Notes under the pieces: model-generated
Databases searched by the model: none
What the model was told of the DNA's origin: nothing
What the model saw: only the letters and a program-made list of their open reading frames with translations
Shown here: piece by piece, positions 55-46,984 of the stretch
Layout: each line of letters begins with the position of its first letter
How positions within the stretch are numbered: position 1 is the first letter of the stretch
Virus genome (UHGV): UHGV-0142121
Strand: one strand, 5' to 3'
DNA: 46,984 nt
Origin: a virus
Translations under genes and position numbers: made by a program

Positions 55-56
55 AA

Positions 57-198
57 CGTAACAGTATATGCAAATGATGTTACGATAAATTAATTAATGG
101 TTACGATAATTATTTACACATAGTTAAAATTATGTTACGATGATTTATAGGTTGATTTTTAGCCTTTTAGGTGTAATGTTTTCGCATATTGTTACGAT
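57..198. promoter_or_regulatory. Telomere-flanking repeat array: GTTACGAT direct repeats at 79, 100, 134, 191 and inverted CGTAAC at 57; overlaps the telN upstream region
   Basis: Four copies of one octamer in AT-rich DNA between telomere and telN start; the reverse-complement octamer recurs next to the other telomere. Confidence 0.5.
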
Positions 199-3386: not shown

Positions 3387-6300
3387 TTAAACCGCCTGCA
3401 ACCGCTTCAGTTCGTTGTATTGGCCATCTGATAGTTGCCACATATTGTCAGCCATAAACAGCCCGGCAACCGTCGCCTGTATCAACCGTGGCGGCATAGT
3501 CGCCAGTTGTGCCAGTTCTTCCGGCGTCAGTGCGGTTCTCAGCCATGCAAATGGCACCGGCATCGCAGCGATAGCCTCTTCAATCGTCGTCAGCGTTGCC
3601 TCAATAAATGCCGTCTCAGCAGATCCAGATTGGGATCTTACATCTATATTTGATCGGCAATCGAGATCCGGTTCTTCCGGTGCCCCCACATCCAGTTTCA
3701 TCTGGACAAACGACAGTGATGCCTCGGCGCGACGCGCCAGAATTCCGTGAATGAATTCCCAGGATTCGGGGACGATTGACCACACGTAACCGAGGCCCTG
3801 TGAACGCGGTAGGCGGCGTTTTTGAGTCGCGTAACCGAATGCCTCACAGATCTGTTTGAAAACCGTCTCGGGGCGTTTCTGGCGGCCTTTAGGGTTTATA
3901 TAGCCACCGAACCGCAGGACGTTGTTGAAACGGTCCGCGGTGGTTGGGTCCATAAGTTTGGCCATAGCTTCCGCCATACCTTCCTGGCTGGCTTCACCGG
4001 CGCCGGTATCTGGGTTAATACCGCAGGTGGAGAAATACTCCCTGGCGGCCTTACGGTGCAGCGATGCGTACGTACGCTGGGTTACTTCCATCACCGGGCG
4101 GCTTTGGACGGTGTAGCCGGTTATTCCTGGCTGCATGCGGTCGAACTGCGCATCAGCTGCTTCGCGGTTGAGCGCGGTGATCGTTACAAATTCGTTACGC
4201 GGCCCTTTGCGGAATTGGTAGGTGAACGTGAAAGCCTGCTGCTCACGGTCAATGCGTGCGGCGGTCATTTCATCCATCGTCATCAGTTCGGCCAGCGTCA
4301 GTTTCTTCTTCCCGCCATCGAGCAGGAATTTCAGAGATTCCGGGCTGACATCCAGCATCAACTCTTTTTCGATATCCCAGCGCGCCAGTTGCGCCTGCTC
4401 ATCTTCAGATAGTGATCGCTTGCCCATCAGTTCGTCGCGTTCGTCTTCGTCCGGGGTTTCCACTTCCATATGGCGCAGAACGGTCATATCCCAGACCCGC
4501 TCTTTCGATGCCTTACGCAGTTCTTTGCCGGTTTCGCTGGCCAGCGAGTCTTCGGCCAAGTGGCTGACGTTATAGCCATCGGCGTAGAGAATGCAGATCA
4601 GGTTGTTGGCGAAATCGTTTCTGGCCTGGGCCTCCATCGCGGCAACTTTAAATTTCATGCGGACATAGGTGGTGTCCGCCAGACCAAGGGAAAGGCGGTC
4701 GCCATCCAGGATGGCGTCGGTAAATTCTTCGTTTATCTCGGCGGTTTCCAGCAGTGCCTGCAGGAACCCACGGCGGATGTTGTCGGCGTTCTCTTCGCGT
4801 ACGCCAGGCAGCTTGTTCAGGCCGACCATAAATTCGGTGGCGGTCCTGTCGCGGCGCAGCATCTGAATGGCGTCGGACGGCACTACCTGGCCGCAGAAGC
4901 AGCCGAAATGGCGGGTGAAGTGCCGTTCTTCGATCGAGACGCCAGAACTGATAGCCGGGCTATAAATCAGGCCATCGTAGAGTTTAGCGCGCTGGTTCGG
5001 CGCGTCGGTAAACGCCACGACTTCCTGATCCGGCTTTGTGTCCTGGCTGACGTAAAGCCATTTCTTTTCTGGCCAGCGGTCGCGCAGCTGCAGCAGCAAC
5101 TGTTCGGCAAAATTGGTTGAGTCGGTGGCCAGCAGGAATTTTTCGCCAGCGGCCACAGCTTTCAATACTTCAACCATTATGCGGTCGGTATCGGTGTAAA
5201 GCACGCGGCGCGCTTCGCGCGTACCGTCGACTTTTTTGTACTTCACATCAACCGGCAGCTCGATGACGTGGATCTGTGTCCAGGTCGACAGGCCGGTTTG
5301 TTCGCGTCTGGCCAGCGCCAGTTCGCAGAGGTCTACCAGGATATCGCTGGCGTCCGCATCAACCAGCAGTGCGTGGTCATCGCTGTACGCGATGGAGTCG
5401 ATAAGGCGATTGAACACATCAACCGGGTGCGCCATCGCTTTACCGGAAAGCGTAGCGCGCAGGCCCTGGGTAGCTTCATCCAGGCCAAAGAAATCGTGCT
5501 TGCGCATCAGCGGTTGCCAGCAGCCCTTCACGATTGAATTGATACAGATCGTCAGCTTGCTGGCATACGGCGCCAGTTCCTGATAGCCGGGGTCCTGATA
5601 GTGCAGGATATCGCAATTCATGCGGCGGCCATCGTCGGCACGCGTCATCATGTCCCAGAGGCCACCGATTAGCGAAACGCGGTGCGCAACCGAAACGCCA
5701 CGCTGCGCGCTGTGCATCATAGGGCGCAGCAGGTGCTTGGATTTGCCCGACCCCATGCCGGCACGGACTATTACCGGGCCATTCAGCGCTTTGATGTAAT
5801 CCAGCACGTCTTTGGTCATGTGCGGTGTATCGAACCGCTTATAGGTGATATGATCGGGGCGTATTGCCGGGTTCGTTACGCGCTCGCTGAATGATCGGAA
5901 AGCCTGGGCCTTGTCGCATTTCTGTTTGAAGGCGCGTTTAACGCGGTTATACACGGTACCGTGCAGCGCTTTGTCGGCGCCGAGCTGGTCCAGCTTCATT
6001 TTTATCAGCGAGATCAGCTCCTGCGGGGATAACTTGGACGGGCATTGCATCATGCCGGCATCAATGCAGCGTACCAGCTGGCGTGAGAACGCGCGGCGAT
6101 CGGAAACCGGCGCAACGGCCAGAGACAGCATTTCAGCATCAAAGGAATTGCCTGGCAGCTGCAGGCGGTTCTGTTTTGAAAACAGCTGGCGGTTAGTTTC
6201 GGTGGCACCACGCGCCAGGTGGAGATCGTTGAAATCGCTTAATTCAGTTTCGCTGCTGTCGAAAATCGGGAATGTGCAACGGACCTGCGGGAATTTCTTC

Positions 6301-7376
6301 ATCACGTCGATGCCGACTCTTAACCCGGTATTGCCCTTTCCATTACGGGCCGACTTCTGGTCGTTATCCAGTGCGCACCAGATTTCCATGCCTGGGTACA
6401 GGCTGACCAGCTGATCAACAACCTTGATAACGTTATTTGCTGACACAGCCACGACAACAGCGTCGAAGCGCTTTTTGGCAACGGCAAACACACTGGCGCC
6501 AGTCGCGAAGCCTTCAACAACGCAGATCCTGGTTGCGCCGCGCAGCTGGCCAATGATGTGGCACGAACCAGCAAAGTCACCGGAATCAACAGCGCGGGTC
6601 TGCAGCTTGTCGTTTCTCTCGGTGATTCGCTGCCAGCCAACAATCGGGCCAACGCGAGATTCCCTGTCTTCCCGGCGGTCATCAATATGAGACAGCGGGA
6701 TAGCCATAACAGTTTGTTTTTTAACCGTTTTAGAATTGGGACCATGGTCCCACTGGGTTACGCGCCTGACGTTGCAGTATGAGAAAATGGAGCTGATACC
6801 TTTCTTCACCGCGTATGGCCATGAACCATCTTCTGCCGGTGCGTTGGCGAATGCGGTGGAGAACTGCAGGTATTCGTTCAGGTCAGCGTCGCGGCGCTGC
6901 GACTCCATAAACACAGAGATAGCCTGCTGGCGTTCACGTTCCTGGCGGCGTGCCTCAGCACGTTTACGCTGTTCCAGCTCGCGCGCGGACAGTGGGACCA
7001 CGGTCCCACCGTTCTGTTCTTTGTACCGGCGATATTCGGCTATAAGGAACTGGAAACCACTCCAGGAGCCAGCGTCAGAGCCTTTACATACGAAGTTAAC
7101 AAACGGGTACTTGATGCCTTCCTGCGAACACTCCATGCGGGAGTAGATCTCAACCTTACCTTTCAGCTTTGGCTCAGTAACGGCAGGACCATGATGGGCG
7201 TACTTTGTGAATTTTTCGGCGGCACCGCGAGAGGCAGAAAGTTGAATATCACTGGCGCATTTATGCCAGTCGATGCCGGCAGCGCTCGCAAGATCACTCA
7301 ATTCATTTGATGCCGCGTCAAGCAGCGAAAACGGGTCAGAGTTAAATTTGTGTTGAAAAAAATCCGTTAATTTCAT
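3387..7376 (-). CDS. repA: Replication protein RepA (primase-helicase), about 1329 aa from ATG at 7376; track ORF extends to a TTG at 7388
   Basis: Size and architecture match N15 RepA; Walker A GMGSGKSK; GGTGA ribosome-binding site before the 7376 ATG. Confidence 0.88.
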   Translation of the reverse strand: MKLTDFFQHKFNSDPFSLLDAASNELSDLASAAGIDWHKCASDIQLSASRGAAEKFTKYAHHGPAVTEPKLKGKVEIYSRMECSQEGIKYPFVNFVCKGSDAGSWSGFQFLIAEYRRYKEQNGGTVVPLSARELEQRKRAEARRQERERQQAISVFMESQRRDADLNEYLQFSTAFANAPAEDGSWPYAVKKGISSIFSYCNVRRVTQWDHGPNSKTVKKQTVMAIPLSHIDDRREDRESRVGPIVGWQRITERNDKLQTRAVDSGDFAGSCHIIGQLRGATRICVVEGFATGASVFAVAKKRFDAVVVAVSANNVIKVVDQLVSLYPGMEIWCALDNDQKSARNGKGNTGLRVGIDVMKKFPQVRCTFPIFDSSETELSDFNDLHLARGATETNRQLFSKQNRLQLPGNSFDAEMLSLAVAPVSDRRAFSRQLVRCIDAGMMQCPSKLSPQELISLIKMKLDQLGADKALHGTVYNRVKRAFKQKCDKAQAFRSFSERVTNPAIRPDHITYKRFDTPHMTKDVLDYIKALNGPVIVRAGMGSGKSKHLLRPMMHSAQRGVSVAHRVSLIGGLWDMMTRADDGRRMNCDILHYQDPGYQELAPYASKLTICINSIVKGCWQPLMRKHDFFGLDEATQGLRATLSGKAMAHPVDVFNRLIDSIAYSDDHALLVDADASDILVDLCELALARREQTGLSTWTQIHVIELPVDVKYKKVDGTREARRVLYTDTDRIMVEVLKAVAAGEKFLLATDSTNFAEQLLLQLRDRWPEKKWLYVSQDTKPDQEVVAFTDAPNQRAKLYDGLIYSPAISSGVSIEERHFTRHFGCFCGQVVPSDAIQMLRRDRTATEFMVGLNKLPGVREENADNIRRGFLQALLETAEINEEFTDAILDGDRLSLGLADTTYVRMKFKVAAMEAQARNDFANNLICILYADGYNVSHLAEDSLASETGKELRKASKERVWDMTVLRHMEVETPDEDERDELMGKRSLSEDEQAQLARWDIEKELMLDVSPESLKFLLDGGKKKLTLAELMTMDEMTAARIDREQQAFTFTYQFRKGPRNEFVTITALNREAADAQFDRMQPGITGYTVQSRPVMEVTQRTYASLHRKAAREYFSTCGINPDTGAGEASQEGMAEAMAKLMDPTTADRFNNVLRFGGYINPKGRQKRPETVFKQICEAFGYATQKRRLPRSQGLGYVWSIVPESWEFIHGILARRAEASLSFVQMKLDVGAPEEPDLDCRSNIDVRSQSGSAETAFIEATLTTIEEAIAAMPVPFAWLRTALTPEELAQLATMPPRLIQATVAGLFMADNMWQLSDGQYNELKRLQAV
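6736..6753. repeat. sopC-like palindrome TTGGGACCATGGTCCCAC inside repA coding sequence
   Basis: Near-perfect 18-bp inverted repeat matching the dispersed family; encodes TQWDHGPN in RepA. Confidence 0.7.
7002..7019. repeat. sopC-like palindrome GTGGGACCACGGTCCCAC inside repA coding sequence
   Basis: Core TGGGACCACGGTCCCA, identical to the F sopC inverted repeat as I recall it; encodes GGTVVPL in RepA. Confidence 0.7.
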
Positions 7377-35501: not shown

Positions 35502-36209
35502 ATGCTGAGCCAGCGACTGATTACCGCCATCCAGAAGCATGCCGAGAAGGTATATCCGCATGAGTGTTGCGGGTTGATTATCCGGGCTGGACGCCAGCGC
35601 CGGTATATTCCCTGCGAAAACACCCACGACCAGCCCGCTGAATTTTTCCGGATCAGTGCTGAAGCCTGGGCCGATGCTGAGGACGCTGGCGAGGTGCTGG
35701 CGGTTGTGCATTCGCATCCTGATGCCGGGCCACATGCGTCTGCAGAAGACCTGAAGCAATGCCATGAAAGCGGCCTGCCATGGATCATTATGTCGTGGCC
35801 ATCCGGAGAGCACACCGTCACCACGCCAGCCGATACACCGCCGCTGCTGAAGCGTCCGTTTATCCATGGCAGTTGGGACTGCTATGGGCTTATCCGCGAC
35901 TGGTACAAGCAGGAACGTGGCATAGAGTTACCCAACTTTGAGCGGACCGATAACTGGTGGACACGCGGAGAGAATCTCTACGTTCGGCACTATGCTGAGG
36001 CGGGGTTTTACTCGCACGTCAGCGAGCTGCAGCCGGGCGATATCATCCTGATGCAGTACAAGGCCGATGAAATTAACCATGCCGGCATTTACCTGGGGGA
36101 CGGAAAGATGTTCCACCACATGTATGGCCGGCTGAGTGAAGTTGTTCCGTACGGCGGCATGTGGCGCGACCGTACGCTGTTAACGCTGAGGTATAGAGAT
36201 GGGCAGTGA
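35502..36209 (+). CDS. Tail assembly protein K (JAB/MPN plus NlpC/P60-like), 235 aa
   Basis: HECCGL and VHSHPD motifs of the gpK N-terminal domain plus C-terminal peptidase-like region; start at ATG 35502. Confidence 0.75.
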   Translation: MLSQRLITAIQKHAEKVYPHECCGLIIRAGRQRRYIPCENTHDQPAEFFRISAEAWADAEDAGEVLAVVHSHPDAGPHASAEDLKQCHESGLPWIIMSWPSGEHTVTTPADTPPLLKRPFIHGSWDCYGLIRDWYKQERGIELPNFERTDNWWTRGENLYVRHYAEAGFYSHVSELQPGDIILMQYKADEINHAGIYLGDGKMFHHMYGRLSEVVPYGGMWRDRTLLTLRYRDGQ

Positions 36210-36810
36210 ATCCCTTAATACCGTTGAAAAAGTCGTCCTGGTGCGCCTGTACGGCAAGCTGGGAACGTTATTTGGGCGCGAGCACCGGCTGTCCGTCTCA
36301 TCCGTACGTGAAGCGATACGCGCGCTCTGCATCATGATCCCCGGTTTCGAACTTTGGCTGGAAACAAGCCAGGAGCGGGGTATTACGTATGCCATCTTTA
36401 ACGGCGAACGCAATATCCGCGAGCAGGACCTGCAGCTGGATGGCGTACACGAAGTTATCCGCATTGCGCCGGTGATTATCGGCAGCAAGAAAAATGGGGC
36501 GTTCCAGACTATTTTTGGTGCCGTATTAGTTGCAGTGGGATTCGTGCTCAGTTTTACACCATACGCAGCAGCATCACCGTTTCTCTACAAAATTGGTGCG
36601 GCAATGATGCTGGGTGGTGTTGCGCAGATGCTCGTTCCAGCAGGGACGCAGGGTATGACGAACGAATCAAAAGACACCCGGAAAAGTTACTCGTTCGGTG
36701 CGCCGGCGAACCAGGTGGCCGCGGGGAGTGGTGTTCCGATTCTTTACGGCATCCGTGAAATCGGCGGCGTACTGATTAGCGGCGGGATCTACGCCGAGGA
36801 CCAGAACTAA
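36199..36810 (+). CDS. Tail assembly protein I, 203 aa
   Basis: Lambda gpI-like, hydrophobic C-terminal half; position between K and J. Confidence 0.7.
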   Translation: MGSESLNTVEKVVLVRLYGKLGTLFGREHRLSVSSVREAIRALCIMIPGFELWLETSQERGITYAIFNGERNIREQDLQLDGVHEVIRIAPVIIGSKKNGAFQTIFGAVLVAVGFVLSFTPYAAASPFLYKIGAAMMLGGVAQMLVPAGTQGMTNESKDTRKSYSFGAPANQVAAGSGVPILYGIREIGGVLISGGIYAEDQN

Positions 36811-43243: not shown

Positions 43244-43340
43244 GAATCCACAGAAAACATCATATGCAAATTCCGTCAGAAGGAGATTTAGCGAAAAAAC
43301 ATTCTCCAAAACTCATTTGTAACTACATGATTTTATAGAG

Positions 43341-43380
43341 TTTGGCATGCAGTTTACTTGAAGGTAAAAAGCATGCCAAA
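43341..43380. repeat. 10-bp perfect inverted repeat TTTGGCATGC / GCATGCCAAA, 20-bp spacer, between convergent umuD'-like and sopB
   Basis: Seen directly; no adjacent T-run. Confidence 0.3.
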
Positions 43381-43438
43381 TTAAGCGTTAACTTATTGAA
43401 TGATATAAATTAACTATCTATGTCGCTAACCTTCTTGT

Positions 43439-44620
43439 TCAAAGGACGTAGCGCTTTGCTATTTCGTTACCTATTTTTTGAATCCGCTGGTCTTCAGTGG
43501 TTTCATCATTTAGTACGGTTCTGGCGAACGGGATTAGGGCCAGAATTTCGTTGGCGGGGATATCGTATTTCAAGCCTGTCGCCGCGGCGCGGATGTAGTT
43601 GGTCACATCATTAATTTCTAAAAATGCCTCATCCACTACCTTACCAACCGATTTTTGCTGTTCGGCCTGGTGAGCTTCCAGTAGTTCTTCAATCCTCTGT
43701 ACTAACGCTGGCGATACGTTGCTAAGTTGGAAGGATACAGAATCCCCCTTGTACTTCGCTTTCATCCCTTTACCAAACAGGCGCTCACGCACTGCAGGTT
43801 TTACTGGCTTTTGCGCTACCTGGTGCAGCTGGTCAAGAATGTCATCAGTTTCGAGCTGTTCACCAGCGCGCTTGCGCTTGGCCAGATGCTGCGCAAACGC
43901 AAACATTGCATCTTCATTCTCGGCATAGACTTTTGCCAGTGCCTCACCAGCTCTGGCGCTCAGCTCGTTAGGGTTACGGAAAAGGCCAATGATTTCGCGT
44001 GGTAGCTCTGCCGTCTTCATGCAGCGGACGATAATTTTTCGGGAGATATTCTCCGCTTCGGCCAGCTTACTGACGGTACCACCGAACTCATTAGCCAGGC
44101 GGCGAGCATAGCGTTTTCCGCGTTCGTAAGAGCTGGTCTGCCGGTAGTCGTTCCCGATCTGTGATAGCCAGGCCATTTGTTCGTCGTCCAGCTCGCCGAC
44201 GAGAACGCGGTATTCAGAGCTGGTGTAAATGGCTGTCTGGCGGCGGCGGCTACCGTCGGCCACTTCAATGATGCCAGAAATTTTGCGGCCAAAAGCTGGG
44301 TTTTGTTGCCCGGATGCGAGGAATGATGGGATCAGGTCATCCAGGGCGTCTTTTGTCAGTAGAGCCTGGTCCCGCTCGTTGCCGCCCCATACCATGGTCG
44401 CCTTTTCCACCATGTTTGCATCGACGGTTTCCAGCTTAAACGACACATCCCGCCCACAGACCGGAAGGGTGATATGGTTCCCGGTCATCCCGCGGACGCG
44501 TTCGCTTAGGTTTGCCACCGCCGGCGCCGCTGGTTTATGCGCTTCATCATGTCGTGGGACCGCGGTCACAGTGTCCAGATTAATTTGCGGAGCGTTTTTC
44601 ATTACAGGCGCGCGTTTCAT
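43439..44620 (-). CDS. sopB: Partition protein SopB (ParB family), about 393 aa from ATG 44620
   Basis: N-terminal 230 aa closely match my recollection of F SopB (ITLPVCGRDV, NERDQ, DALDDLIPSF, RVLVGELDDEQMA, AENISRKII); start overlaps sopA stop (ATGA). Confidence 0.85.
   Translation of the reverse strand: MKRAPVMKNAPQINLDTVTAVPRHDEAHKPAAPAVANLSERVRGMTGNHITLPVCGRDVSFKLETVDANMVEKATMVWGGNERDQALLTKDALDDLIPSFLASGQQNPAFGRKISGIIEVADGSRRRQTAIYTSSEYRVLVGELDDEQMAWLSQIGNDYRQTSSYERGKRYARRLANEFGGTVSKLAEAENISRKIIVRCMKTAELPREIIGLFRNPNELSARAGEALAKVYAENEDAMFAFAQHLAKRKRAGEQLETDDILDQLHQVAQKPVKPAVRERLFGKGMKAKYKGDSVSFQLSNVSPALVQRIEELLEAHQAEQQKSVGKVVDEAFLEINDVTNYIRAAATGLKYDIPANEILALIPFARTVLNDETTEDQRIQKIGNEIAKRYVL
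44555..44570. repeat. Degenerate sopC-like site TGGGACCGCGGTCACA inside sopB 5' coding region (one mismatch)
   Basis: 15 of 16 match to the palindrome core. Confidence 0.3.
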
Positions 44621-45828
44621 TTGTTGTTCTCCCAGCGAGTAGCAATCAGGCGGTCGTAAATTTCCCGGCAAACAGGTTCCCAGATAGCGACAGCATTGCG
44701 CCATGCTGTAGGGGTGCTGCGTTGGTTTGCAGCCTGCTCAAACACGGTGCGCATGCGTACCTGGCCCTTACCTACTTCGTCGGTTACGCGGACAACCTCC
44801 TTCAGCACCATCCCGCCCCAGGCGTTGCGGATCTGTTCATCCATCCAGGCAGATTGGTTGCCGACGGCCGTGCTGTATTTAGTTACCAGAACGCGGACAT
44901 CAGGTTCAAAGCCACCAAGGTCCACGTTGGCCATCAGGTCGCGAAGCATTGTGAAGAACTGAAGAGAGGAAACGTAGTCATACAGTTCAGCTGGTGTAGG
45001 TACAACGATCACATCTGCTGCGCATACGACGTTTATTGTGCCGATGCCGAGGTTTGGTGCGCTATCAATGACAATCAGGTCGTAGCTATCCCAGACAGAC
45101 TCGATAGCGGCGCGCAGAAGCAGGTGAGATGCCACCGGCAAGCGGCCTTCTTTCTCCAGTACCTCGATCTCTGATTCGATGCGGTGAATGGCCAGGCAGG
45201 ACGGGATGATATCGAGGTTCGGCCAGCAGGTAGGCTTAATCGCGTATTCAGCGTTATCACGTTCGCCCAGGTAGTACGGCAGCAGCGTATCGTCTGCGTG
45301 GATATGCAGATCAGGGACGTAGCCGTGGTACAAGCTGGCGGTTGCTTGCGGGTCAGTCGCATCAATCAGCAGAACGCGAAGGCCCTGCAGTGCAGCCCAT
45401 TGAGCCATATGTACGCTGGTCGATGTTTTGTATGCGCCACCTTTATGCGCGGCAATAGCCAACACAACAGGCGATTGGCCTTCCGGACGAGACGGGCGGG
45501 TACCAAAGTGATCGCGCATAGAGTTGATTTGCTCGATGGTATAGCCGGCACGTTGTGGAACGCGACCGCGAGTCACCATATCAGCCGGCGGCAGTCGCCC
45601 ACCATCTTCTGCATTGCGAATAGATTGCGGTGTAACACCGATCAGTTCTGCCGCTTCAGTAATGCCCCAGCGACGAGTGATGGCGCGAGACTCTGGGCTA
45701 TCATCACCAAATTGAGCCTGCGCGATAGCCATTGTCATGGCATGGCCACGAGAAATCAGTTCATCCAAACGCGATTTTAAATTCACTTTCGTACTCTCCG
45801 GTAACTTTGCGTAAAAATAGTAAAACAC
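44617..45828 (-). CDS. sopA: Partition ATPase SopA (ParA family); probable start at GTG 45786 (389 aa) rather than the track start at 45828
   Basis: Near-collinear with my recollection of F SopA (AHKGGxYKTS Walker A, IIPSCLA, VIDSAPNLGIGTINVVCAADV, EPVCxEIxDRLI); GGAGAG ribosome-binding site before the 45786 GTG; CTTTGC-like motifs upstream. Confidence 0.85.
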   Translation of the reverse strand: MFYYFYAKLPESTKVNLKSRLDELISRGHAMTMAIAQAQFGDDSPESRAITRRWGITEAAELIGVTPQSIRNAEDGGRLPPADMVTRGRVPQRAGYTIEQINSMRDHFGTRPSRPEGQSPVVLAIAAHKGGAYKTSTSVHMAQWAALQGLRVLLIDATDPQATASLYHGYVPDLHIHADDTLLPYYLGERDNAEYAIKPTCWPNLDIIPSCLAIHRIESEIEVLEKEGRLPVASHLLLRAAIESVWDSYDLIVIDSAPNLGIGTINVVCAADVIVVPTPAELYDYVSSLQFFTMLRDLMANVDLGGFEPDVRVLVTKYSTAVGNQSAWMDEQIRNAWGGMVLKEVVRVTDEVGKGQVRMRTVFEQAANQRSTPTAWRNAVAIWEPVCREIYDRLIATRWENNK

Positions 45829-45924
45829 TATAAAAGACGCAAAGCAACATTAAAAAAGCAAATTTGTTTATGTGACGCATTAAAGAGAACTATCAACACT
45901 AAAAAGTTTATAGGACAGAGCTAG

Positions 45925-45964
45925 CCGTACGTAGGCCGTACAAACCACCCGTACAACGTACGGG
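45925..45964. repeat. CCGTAC direct repeats (45925, 45936, 45949) ending in palindrome CCCGTACAACGTACGGG, immediately upstream of the GNAT gene
   Basis: Three direct hexamers at roughly one-helical-turn spacing plus an inverted copy. Confidence 0.5.
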
Positions 45965-45965
45965 T

Positions 45966-46448
45966 TTGATTGACAGCGGGGATGACGTAATCAATAAGTT
46001 CATCCCGCAACTAAAGCGCCAGTGTGGCCGTGACAACATCAATGCATTGCTGTTGCTTGATGGGGATAAAAAACTATTCGGCTTTGCCACGGCCACCCTT
46101 TATCAGTTAGGACGGGATGGTATTCCGGAAGATACATATCCGTATGCACTACCACCCGCAATAGCGGTGATGAAAATCCCAATGATTGCCATCGATAAAC
46201 AACTACAAAGGCAAGGTTGGGGGCACGATTTATTGCGTGCAATCCTTGATTACAGCGTTGAGAGCGCTGATTTGGTGAAAGGCATTAAAGGTGTTTATCT
46301 TGATGCAAAAGTAGACGCTCGCTCGTTTTATGAGAGCTTTGAATTCAAAGCTCTCAGCGAAACGGTTAGCGAGAATGGCACTATCCCAATGCTCCTCCCT
46401 ATGGATGTCCTCCGGGAGAGCCGGAAAAACTGGGAGCAGTCCGCATAG
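45966..46448 (+). CDS. GNAT-family acetyltransferase-like protein, 160 aa, TTG start
   Basis: Acetyl-CoA motif Q-x-x-G-x-G (QRQGWGHDLL); no in-frame ATG in the N-terminal 70 codons; no antitoxin-sized partner ORF adjacent. Confidence 0.45.
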   Translation: MIDSGDDVINKFIPQLKRQCGRDNINALLLLDGDKKLFGFATATLYQLGRDGIPEDTYPYALPPAIAVMKIPMIAIDKQLQRQGWGHDLLRAILDYSVESADLVKGIKGVYLDAKVDARSFYESFEFKALSETVSENGTIPMLLPMDVLRESRKNWEQSA

Positions 46449-46478
46449 GCGTGGACGTAAAAGCCAGAACTCAATGAA

Positions 46479-46508
46479 AGAGCCACCGCGAGGTGGCTCT
46501 TTCTCTTC
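46479..46508 (+). terminator. Hairpin after the GNAT gene (terminator-like)
   Basis: 9-bp stem AGAGCCACC/GGTGGCTCT with GCGA loop, followed by TTCTCTTC. Confidence 0.4.
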
Positions 46509-46746
46509 TGAAGGGCGGCATATGACATGCAGCGCGAAGCGCTGTGGAAGCATAAAAAGGGGTTTTATAGAGGCAAAAGAGCCAAACTGGAAGATGGTTC
46601 AATAAACGTCAACACCTAACATAATGTTTTTCAATGATAATATAAGGAATTTCCGTTTAACTGTTGGAGAACAACAAGCATCATAACACGTGATTTTTTT
46701 ACTATTTTTTATTTTCATTCGATGAATGAATGAAAGCAAATAACAA

Positions 46747-46916
46747 CGTAACAAAATACGAATTTGAATTACAATAATTGAACACACTACCACGCCAATA
46801 AAATGACCAACCATAAAACCAATAGAACCTAATCAAACAAAATCATCGTAACACAATCTACAATTAATCATCGTAACAACATCCGAATGAATTAGCAGGG
46901 TGTATCATATCGTAAC
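46747..46916. promoter_or_regulatory. Telomere-flanking repeat array, right arm: ATCGTAAC at 46845, 46870, 46909 and CGTAAC at 46747, in AT-rich non-coding DNA
   Basis: Reverse complement of the GTTACGAT repeats next to the left telomere. Confidence 0.5.
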
Positions 46917-46930
46917 AATTATTGAATGAT

Positions 46931-46984
46931 TAACAGAACACATTATTAAATATACGCGCGTATATTTAATAATGTGTTCTGTTA
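46931..46984. repeat. Hairpin telomere, right end: 54-nt perfect palindrome (apex between 46957 and 46958)
   Basis: Reverse complement of 46931-46957 equals 46958-46984; shares the 40-nt core with the left-end palindrome, outer 7 nt differ. Confidence 0.85.

Follow-up and report, generated by a model that had tools for sequence, protein, structure and literature searches.

Why should a toxin-like acetyltransferase gene with no partner lie beside the telomere of a linear phage-plasmid, directly behind an array of short repeats? The stretch of DNA analysed here, 46,984 nucleotides long and hereafter called the window, spans the whole of a linear plasmid prophage of the N15/phiKO2 type. A repeat search found perfect palindromes at its left end (positions 1-54) and its right end (46931-46984, 54 nt in two arms of 27+27 nt), which are the read-throughs of the two hairpin telomeres. 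The right-end telomere sequence is found in sister contigs as the tel site preceding the protelomerase gene, and phiKO2-like phages of Klebsiella share about 75% identity with parts of the left arm. Near the right end, sopA (44617-45786, minus strand) encodes a ParA-type partition ATPase of 389 aa from a GTG start in the context GGAGAG-N7-GTG; its 99%-identical counterpart in sister loci matches Pfam CbiA/AAA_31, and a SopB_HTH gene comes after it. Divergent from sopA, and between it and the right telomere, is a 160-aa ORF with a TTG start (45966-46448, plus strand).

A first-pass annotation, made from the letters alone, had seen in this ORF a GNAT-like protein with the acetyl-CoA motif QRQGWG, and upstream of it a set of CCGTAC repeats ending in a palindrome. 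Both observations hold. The GNAT domain is matched by Pfam Acetyltransf_10 (PF13673) with a score of 36.5 bits (cut-off 23.6), the motif (encoded at 46206-46223) aligns with the G115 loop of ItaT, and the repeats with their palindrome lie at 45925-45964. Three options had been left for the gene: an orphan or degenerate toxin, a toxin controlled in trans, or an unrelated acetyltransferase. "Degenerate toxin" was the correct one. In all likelihood the region is the inactivated remnant of a type II addiction module, made up of a DUF1778 ribbon-helix-helix (RHH) antitoxin of the TacA/KacA/AtaR kind and a tRNA-acetylating GNAT toxin of the ItaT/TacT kind, that was lost through a 619-bp deletion.

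What kind of acetyltransferase was it? When the PDB was searched with phmmer, the best match was the E. coli toxin ItaT (7byy, E 2e-13; PMC7367177), followed by KacT and AtaT, which bears out the suspected kinship with translation-targeting toxins. Comparison of folds gave the same answer. An AlphaFold2 model of the full-length protein, built on a 28-sequence alignment, had a mean pLDDT of 82, with β1 at residues 11-14 and α1 at 32-47; with this model, the best 38 PDB matches in Foldseek were all tRNA-acetylating GNAT toxins, ItaT (7byy) having a TM of 0.86. The best sequence and fold matches consist solely of ItaT, AtaT, KacT, TacT1-3, AtaT2 and GmvT, and the option of an unrelated acetyltransferase is rejected. 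The toxin is, by homology, a member of the GNAT family that acetylates aminoacyl-tRNAs, the activity being predicted on the same grounds. In the PDB alignments, however, the first aligned residue is always query residue 23, the I of IDSG, which falls at toxin residue 20-30, and the ORF in the window therefore lacks the usual N-terminus.

Where did the N-terminus go? The region had no match in a phage collection (megablast and blastn) or in E. coli genomes, and Rfam reported no RNA family in the window. In a plasmid collection the sole matches were toxin-antitoxin (TA) modules at 78% identity, and these were the first clue. A large protein collection contained P0001, a GNAT protein of 185 aa from Citrobacter freundii that is 99% identical over the 160 aa and has 25 extra N-terminal residues. 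The contigs encoding it are N15-like phage-plasmids of the same lineage as the window, on which sopB and sopA point leftward, followed rightward by tacA, the GNAT gene, the tel site and the protelomerase gene. The order in these sister Citrobacter phage-plasmids is thus sopA, CCGTAC array, promoter, leader, tacA, GNAT toxin and telomere site. Their antitoxin is a DUF1778/TacA protein of 106 aa (Pfam TacA1, PF08681, 64 bits), whose gene overlaps that of the 185-aa toxin by 17 nt, just as one would expect from the earlier remark that such toxins are often paired with an antitoxin upstream. As had also been remarked, no antitoxin-sized ORF adjoins the GNAT gene in the window, and a search for a TacA homologue anywhere else in it found none (tblastn best E 0.59). 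The leader of the TA module showed no consensus structure in RNAalifold; it carries a conserved mini-ORF that may deserve a study of its own.

The difference between the two alleles could be placed exactly by comparison with the sister loci L003-L012, whose flanks are 99% identical. In blastn, window positions 43288-45979 match L003 2779-5470 at 99.1% identity and positions 45970-46977 match L003 6080-7087 at 99.8%. From these two ranges it follows that 619 bp of L003 (5471-6089) are absent from the window. The matches overlap by 10 nt at the junction (45970-45979, plus strand), and the two copies of this overlap in L003, TTGACAGCGG at 5461-5470 and TTGACTGCGG at 6080-6089, are microhomologies of the form TTGAC(A/T)GCGG that agree at 9/10 positions. 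The left breakpoint in L003 reads ...GTACGGGTTTGA-TTGACAGCGG-ttgataaat and the right one ...aaaagct-TTGACTGCGG-GGATGACG, while the junction in the window reads TTGACAGCGG and then GGATGACG. Read in this way, the breakpoints place the deletion between the two 9/10 microhomologies, with the crossover inside GCGG. The DNA removed comprises the extended -10 element of the promoter, a leader of about 200 nt, the whole of tacA and toxin codons 1-26, including those for β1, and it was not found elsewhere in the window.

The deletion also accounts for the unusual start of the ORF. It had been pointed out that the gene has a TTG start and no early in-frame ATG, and it is true that the first in-frame ATG is codon 69; upstream, the frame is open as far as the TAA at 45900, and this part of it offers no ATG, GTG or TTG ahead of 45966. 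As a start, however, the TTG is not genuine, since the first four codons (M/L-I-D-S) were fused on by the 619-bp deletion and derive from the junction; the native part of the protein corresponds to G30-A185 of the 185-aa toxin. In place of toxin codons 27-29 (F-D-C), the left repeat now supplies I-D-S, which is why the remnant has IDSG where the family has an invariant FDCG. F27 and C29, both invariant in the 28-sequence alignment, have therefore been replaced, and the GNAT core of strands β1-β7 is incomplete, since β1 (residues 11-14 in the AlphaFold2 model of the full-length protein) is absent and native sequence begins only at G30. Judged from its breakpoints, the 160-aa ORF is a truncation product and not a native gene, and its "start" lies in what was non-coding DNA before the deletion: the TTG is simply the earliest start-like codon of the former spacer between the predicted operator and the -35 box.

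Could the truncated protein nevertheless work? One might suppose that it is a functional stand-alone acetyltransferase or toxin, whose translation begins at the TTG and which the cell either tolerates or neutralises in trans with a DUF1778 antitoxin from the Citrobacter chromosome; in a variant of the hypothesis, an inert subunit poisons the dimers of related toxins, given that GNAT toxins act as dimers (PMC7367177). Much of the enzyme is indeed still there. The remnant keeps helices α1 and α3, the acetyl-CoA loop and the catalytic tyrosine, Tyr122 (encoded at 46329-46331), which is Y147 of the full-length protein, aligns with ItaT Y150 (in the "fYarlgf" motif) and KacT Y145, and is invariant in the family alignment. 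NCBI annotates the product as a normal GNAT protein, and the ORF is still open in all of the approximately 40 copies. These copies are so nearly identical, however (the sole variant seen is K35N), that an open frame says nothing about selection, and the N-terminus from which the enzyme would be made is a by-product of the junction, with β1 gone and two invariant residues changed.

Expression of the fragment is a further difficulty. The sister alleles have a predicted σ70-like promoter, TTGACA-17-AATTAT preceded by TG (10/12 matches), of which both the TTGACA and the extended -10 ("TGn + nAnnnT") are conserved across relatives; the assignment is a consensus match supported by this conservation, and the transcription start is likewise a predicted one. 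In the window, the -35 box survives as TTGACA at 45970-45975 (plus strand) and the conserved extended -10 has been deleted, leaving no promoter-like site on the plus strand between 45700 and 46700. The surviving box now lies inside the ORF, and any transcript started from it would therefore lack the TTG. No usable Shine-Dalgarno sequence was found before this codon, and a GC-rich hairpin of 7-8 bp, with a predicted energy of -12 kcal/mol, ends 1 nt ahead of it. Control of the toxin in trans, the remaining option, is unlikely because both the -10 element and strand β1 have been lost, and we consider a working enzyme of this kind, including the variant that poisons dimers, to be quite improbable. 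With the acetyl-CoA loop, the catalytic Tyr and α1 retained, the fragment may have kept some residual activity, but we conclude that the ORF is a pseudogene fragment and presumably inactive.

Two other structures lie in or behind the remnant. After the toxin stop codon there is a terminator-like hairpin (46476-46503, plus strand; -23 kcal/mol in RNAfold) with a perfect 12-bp stem and a 4-nt loop, followed by TCTTCT; its T tract is short, and for this reason it was not reported as a terminator by a consensus scanner. Inside the toxin gene, at 46331-46356, is a perfect palindrome of 26 bp, which is not conserved in relatives and was therefore treated as incidental.

What, then, is the array? Three copies of CCGTAC, at 45925, 45936 and 45949 on the plus strand, are joined by an inverted GTACGG at 45958, with the palindrome CCCGTAC-AAC-GTACGGG (45948-45964) ending one base before the TTG. 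Such a grouping is not expected by chance: four half-sites within 40 bp arose in 0/2000 first-order Markov simulations of the window, in which the maximum was three, reached in 16 runs. (Another cluster of CCGTAC, at 36147-36307, lies inside tail genes, has no N3 palindrome and was dismissed as a coincidence.) The array is kept in 23 of the first 25 related loci, and essentially every locus of the TA family that was fetched has one CCGTAC-N3-GTACGG palindrome upstream of tacA. Its arms are invariant, and the 3-nt spacer varies (AAC, GAT, AAT, ATG, ACT or AGT). Its distance to the promoter is also fixed, with GTACGG or TACGG exactly 6 nt before TTGACA in 10/11 related loci compared; a P2-like prophage of Pantoea has kept the palindrome but not the exact TACGG-N6-TTGAC spacing. 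Most loci have four GTAC cores; counted from the -35 box, the outer ones are at -43 and -12, and the inner ones at either -32/-19 (> > > <) or, in a mirror image, -36/-23 (> < < <), both arrangements having the same outer boundaries. Three loci (L024, L025 and L026) have only two or three recognisable half-sites.

Palindromes may act as nucleic acid rather than as protein-binding sites, and the one at the array could be a hairpin, for example a terminator that insulates sopA from the TA operon. Invariant arms around a variable 3-nt loop would suit a hairpin well, and the stem predicted at -12 kcal/mol is followed by TTTGATT. The additional half-sites, however, are direct repeats 11-13 bp apart and unable to pair among themselves, no compensatory changes were seen in the arms, and a terminator scan was negative at the array. 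The helical spacing of the direct repeats and the existence of a mirror-image arrangement with unchanged outer boundaries argue for a protein complex on duplex DNA instead, and in a crystal structure KacA makes contact with the very same hexamers. A role as a hairpin thus appears extremely unlikely.

If a protein binds there, which one? The first-pass annotation had called the repeats a binding array for an unidentified regulator and had proposed SopA, SopB, TelN and CB as proteins to try. The array lies in the interval between sopA and the telomere, 139 bp from the start of sopA, and sop expression in N15 is influenced by the protelomerase. It could accordingly be a sopAB operator or centromere, or a site for TelN or the CB repressor, with the GNAT gene adjacent by chance. 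This is very unlikely in view of where else the array is found. Seven loci (L001, L022, L023, L026, L027, L030 and L031) have the array and the TA module without any sop or tel genes, in contexts that include an IS26-flanked segment of Klebsiella IncF plasmids, a colicin plasmid of Atlantibacter, P2-like prophages of Dickeya and Pantoea, and chromosomal islands of Klebsiella; the 6-nt distance to TTGACA is kept along with them in the IncF plasmid, the colicin plasmid, the Dickeya prophage and the Klebsiella islands. The repeats thus do not appear to belong to a sopAB operator, and the four proteins named are unlikely binders, since the array accompanies the TA module where sop and tel genes are missing. 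Nor does the window contain any other CCGTAC-N3-GTACGG palindrome. A different element is nearer to sopA and separate from the array, namely an inverted pair of CTTTGC motifs (45805-45844; at 45805 on the plus strand and 45839 on the minus strand) in a stretch that is nearly invariant among N15-like relatives. By analogy with the sop operator of the F plasmid, SopA would bind at this pair, which is probably the sop operator region and a likelier one than the CCGTAC array.

A more specific candidate for the regulator comes from the KacA-KacT system of Klebsiella pneumoniae. The DNA that was crystallised with the KacA4KacT2 complex is AAATGTACGGTTATTAACCGTACATGA (PMC6698736), and this operator has the same GTACGG/CCGTAC hexamers as the array in the window. 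Binding of KacA to its operator requires R8 and R12, of which R12 contacts the G of GTAC (PMC6698736); these residues align with R22 and R26 of the TacA protein of the sister allele. Because the array travels with the TA module, consists of KacA-type half-sites and is matched by the aligned arginines, it would be the module's own operator, and we read it as such, a site for TacA that was orphaned when the antitoxin gene was lost. The view that the repeats form a binding array therefore stands, as a prediction, but the regulator can be named by homology. The layout is not that of kacAT in all respects, since the kacAT operator has two outward-facing half-sites and spans the transcription start, whereas the array described here has four subsites, sits upstream of the -35 box and ends 6 nt before it, with a leader of 200-600 nt to follow.

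How widespread is the truncated allele? Its spread was traced through the exact protein product, WP_081365523.1 of C. freundii, which is encoded on 38 contigs of independent assemblies (NCBI, ENA and Logan), with two one-off variants adding two more; the copies differ by no more than one residue. A scan for the exact junction in species-representative genomes, IMG/VR and JGI metagenomes returned nothing. C. freundii and C. braakii also have alleles of the full 185 aa, on 56 + 22 + 17 + 13 + 11 + 7 contigs and on others besides. Across the sopAB flank, loci with the deletion are 99.96-100% identical to the window, as opposed to the full-length loci, all of which differ from it at 21-22 of 2678 positions. 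This contrast fits one ancestral deletion that would since have spread, rather than an assembly artefact or a recurrent event. The full-length state can be taken as ancestral, since the intact module occupies this position also in more distant N15-like relatives (from Kluyvera and from two metagenomic contigs).

The success of the deletion lineage might itself call for an explanation. It is conceivable that the truncated GNAT is alive at a low level and, having retained the α3 dimer interface and the antitoxin-binding surface, serves as a dominant-negative subunit or decoy against the full-length toxins of related incoming phage-plasmids, with the orphan operator recruiting a resident KacA-like antitoxin. 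Such an "anti-addiction" allele would, if real, explain why the lineage is so common (about 40 contigs), but we give the idea very little probability.

Decay of the module is the preferred reading, and it suggests the following course of events. In the intact allele, the four-subsite GTAC array would lead into the TTGACA/extended -10 promoter, a leader of about 200 nt, tacA and the overlapping toxin gene. Homology with KacAT and AtaRT suggests that the antitoxin or a toxin-antitoxin complex would bind the array and repress the promoter, while free toxin would acetylate aminoacyl-tRNAs, block translation and kill cells that lose the plasmid. The intact module would thus be a conventional piece of plasmid-addiction or defence cargo beside the partition operon. 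A single microhomology-mediated deletion of 619 bp then removed the antitoxin and crippled the toxin at one stroke, and through this joint loss the module could disappear without self-poisoning or the death of the host. What is left in the window is an operator with no antitoxin, a -35 box with no -10 element and, still open although it has no promoter, a toxin fragment without β1.

How does the locus relate to systems already known? The closest solved toxin is that of ItaR-ItaT (E. coli HS, PDB 7BYY), with 29-30% identity and with conservation of ItaT G115, the Gly of the acetyl-CoA loop, and of ItaT Y150, the general-acid Tyr, but the window copy is without the first 26 residues and hence β1. 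KacA-KacT (PDB 5ZGN, the KacAT-operator complex) is likewise an RHH DUF1778 antitoxin paired with a GNAT toxin, with the half-sites and the DNA-reading Arg residues in common and a shared toxin fold (Foldseek E about 1e-10 to 1e-11). Toxin identity, on the other hand, is just 22-24%, and the window itself has lost the antitoxin and part of the toxin. AtaR-AtaT of E. coli O157 and TacA-TacT1-3 of Salmonella share the toxin fold and the two-gene architecture of the sister alleles, whose antitoxin matches AtaR (E 3e-9) as well as Pfam TacA1; sequence similarity is lower, and these are chromosomal or plasmid loci rather than telomere-proximal cargo of a linear phage-plasmid. TA systems of another type also occur in such elements, as shown by a RelE/ParE system in an N15-like phage of Klebsiella (PMC12029707). 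Finally, there are other decayed TA loci with orphan toxin genes, in which a toxin fragment is left without its antitoxin by one deletion that hit both. Here, in contrast, the ancestral state, the exact breakpoints and the microhomology can all be recovered, since phage-plasmids of this lineage with the intact allele are still in circulation.

The window copy is a degenerate member of a known TA family, and there is little new biology in the window itself. Its value lies rather in what the comparison has made clear. An apparent orphan toxin with a mystery array has become a documented case of gene decay in a known TA family, and WP_081365523.1 and similar database entries, being truncation products, should carry a pseudogene flag. 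The operator and promoter architecture is now defined for an uncharacterised ItaT-like TA subfamily. In addition, linear phage-plasmids of Citrobacter that are otherwise near-identical provide two natural alleles, one having the TA module and one lacking it, and this pair would be useful for tests of the module's part in stability or defence.

The leader of the intact toxin–antitoxin operon contains a conserved mini-ORF with its own Shine–Dalgarno sequence, located at 5594–5696 in a sister Citrobacter phage-plasmid (L003) and absent from the window by deletion. Equivalents are also present in L019, L024, L025 and L029, and in loci that carry the module without sop and tel genes (L001, L022, L026, L027, L030 and L031). 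The encoded peptides (for example MTKSRLNFRSGRYR, MAKRKLHRRAGRYR, MTIKNINASSKRYR and MSMNRVTKEMNRGRLR) are 14–22 aa long and share the C-terminal end [GK]R[YLH]R-stop, with the stop codon lying about 56–62 nt upstream of tacA. Among the N15-like loci, only synonymous differences occur in the final four codons, while the N-terminal portion varies freely. A second tiny ORF begins at an ATGA overlapping the mini-ORF stop and, in several loci, reads ATA-AGG-AGG-stop over a conserved AAGGAGG. The mini-ORF could be a translation-sensing leader for a tRNA-acetylating toxin. A search for a consensus RNA structure in the leader found none, and no mention of the mini-ORF turned up in the papers searched.

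Within the toxin coding sequence itself, there is a perfect 26-bp palindrome with GAATTC at its center (TGAGAGCTTTGAA/TTCAAAGCTCTCA; window 46331–46356), corresponding to residues ESFEFKAL. Judging from sequence comparison, this palindrome is probably incidental, since it has decayed in more distant relatives. Directly upstream of sopA, a nearly invariant stretch at 45805–45844 in the window contains an inverted pair of CTTTGC motifs. These motifs are separate from the CCGTAC array and resemble the hexamers that SopA binds in the sop operator of the F plasmid.

The ends of the window carry arrays of another repeat, ATCGTAACA, at 55–198 (minus strand) and 46680–46917 (plus strand). All six exact copies in the window lie within about 200–300 bp of the two telomeres, as do several more with one mismatch. 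Left-arm and right-arm copies are oppositely oriented, making the arrays symmetric about the tel site. The observed number of matches (20) was not reached in any of 100 shuffles. One possibility is that protelomerase, or some other protein that binds the ends, uses these repeats as accessory sites.

In several assemblies, the phage-plasmid appears as a head-to-head inverted dimer (L004, L008 and L014; scaffolds of up to about 93 kb from ENA metagenomes). The junction is the right telomere palindrome, and sopBA and the toxin–antitoxin module are each present in two mirror-image copies. Either the assembler has read on around the hairpin, or these are dimeric intermediates of replication.

Gene content also varies between relatives. 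Some sister phage-plasmids have an IS605-family OrfB/TnpB (Cas12f-like) gene directly after the protelomerase gene, beyond telN (L003, 9426–10607; L015, 6358–6483), while others do not. The Kluyvera N15-like phage-plasmid (L019) carries extra cargo between the toxin–antitoxin module and the tel site (4727–6626): a protein of 208 aa that matches no Pfam family, a RES-domain protein (236 aa, PF08808) encoded on the other strand, and a 44-aa ORF. Thus, the interval between sopA and the telomere looks like a variable slot for cargo or addiction genes in the N15-like phage-plasmid family.
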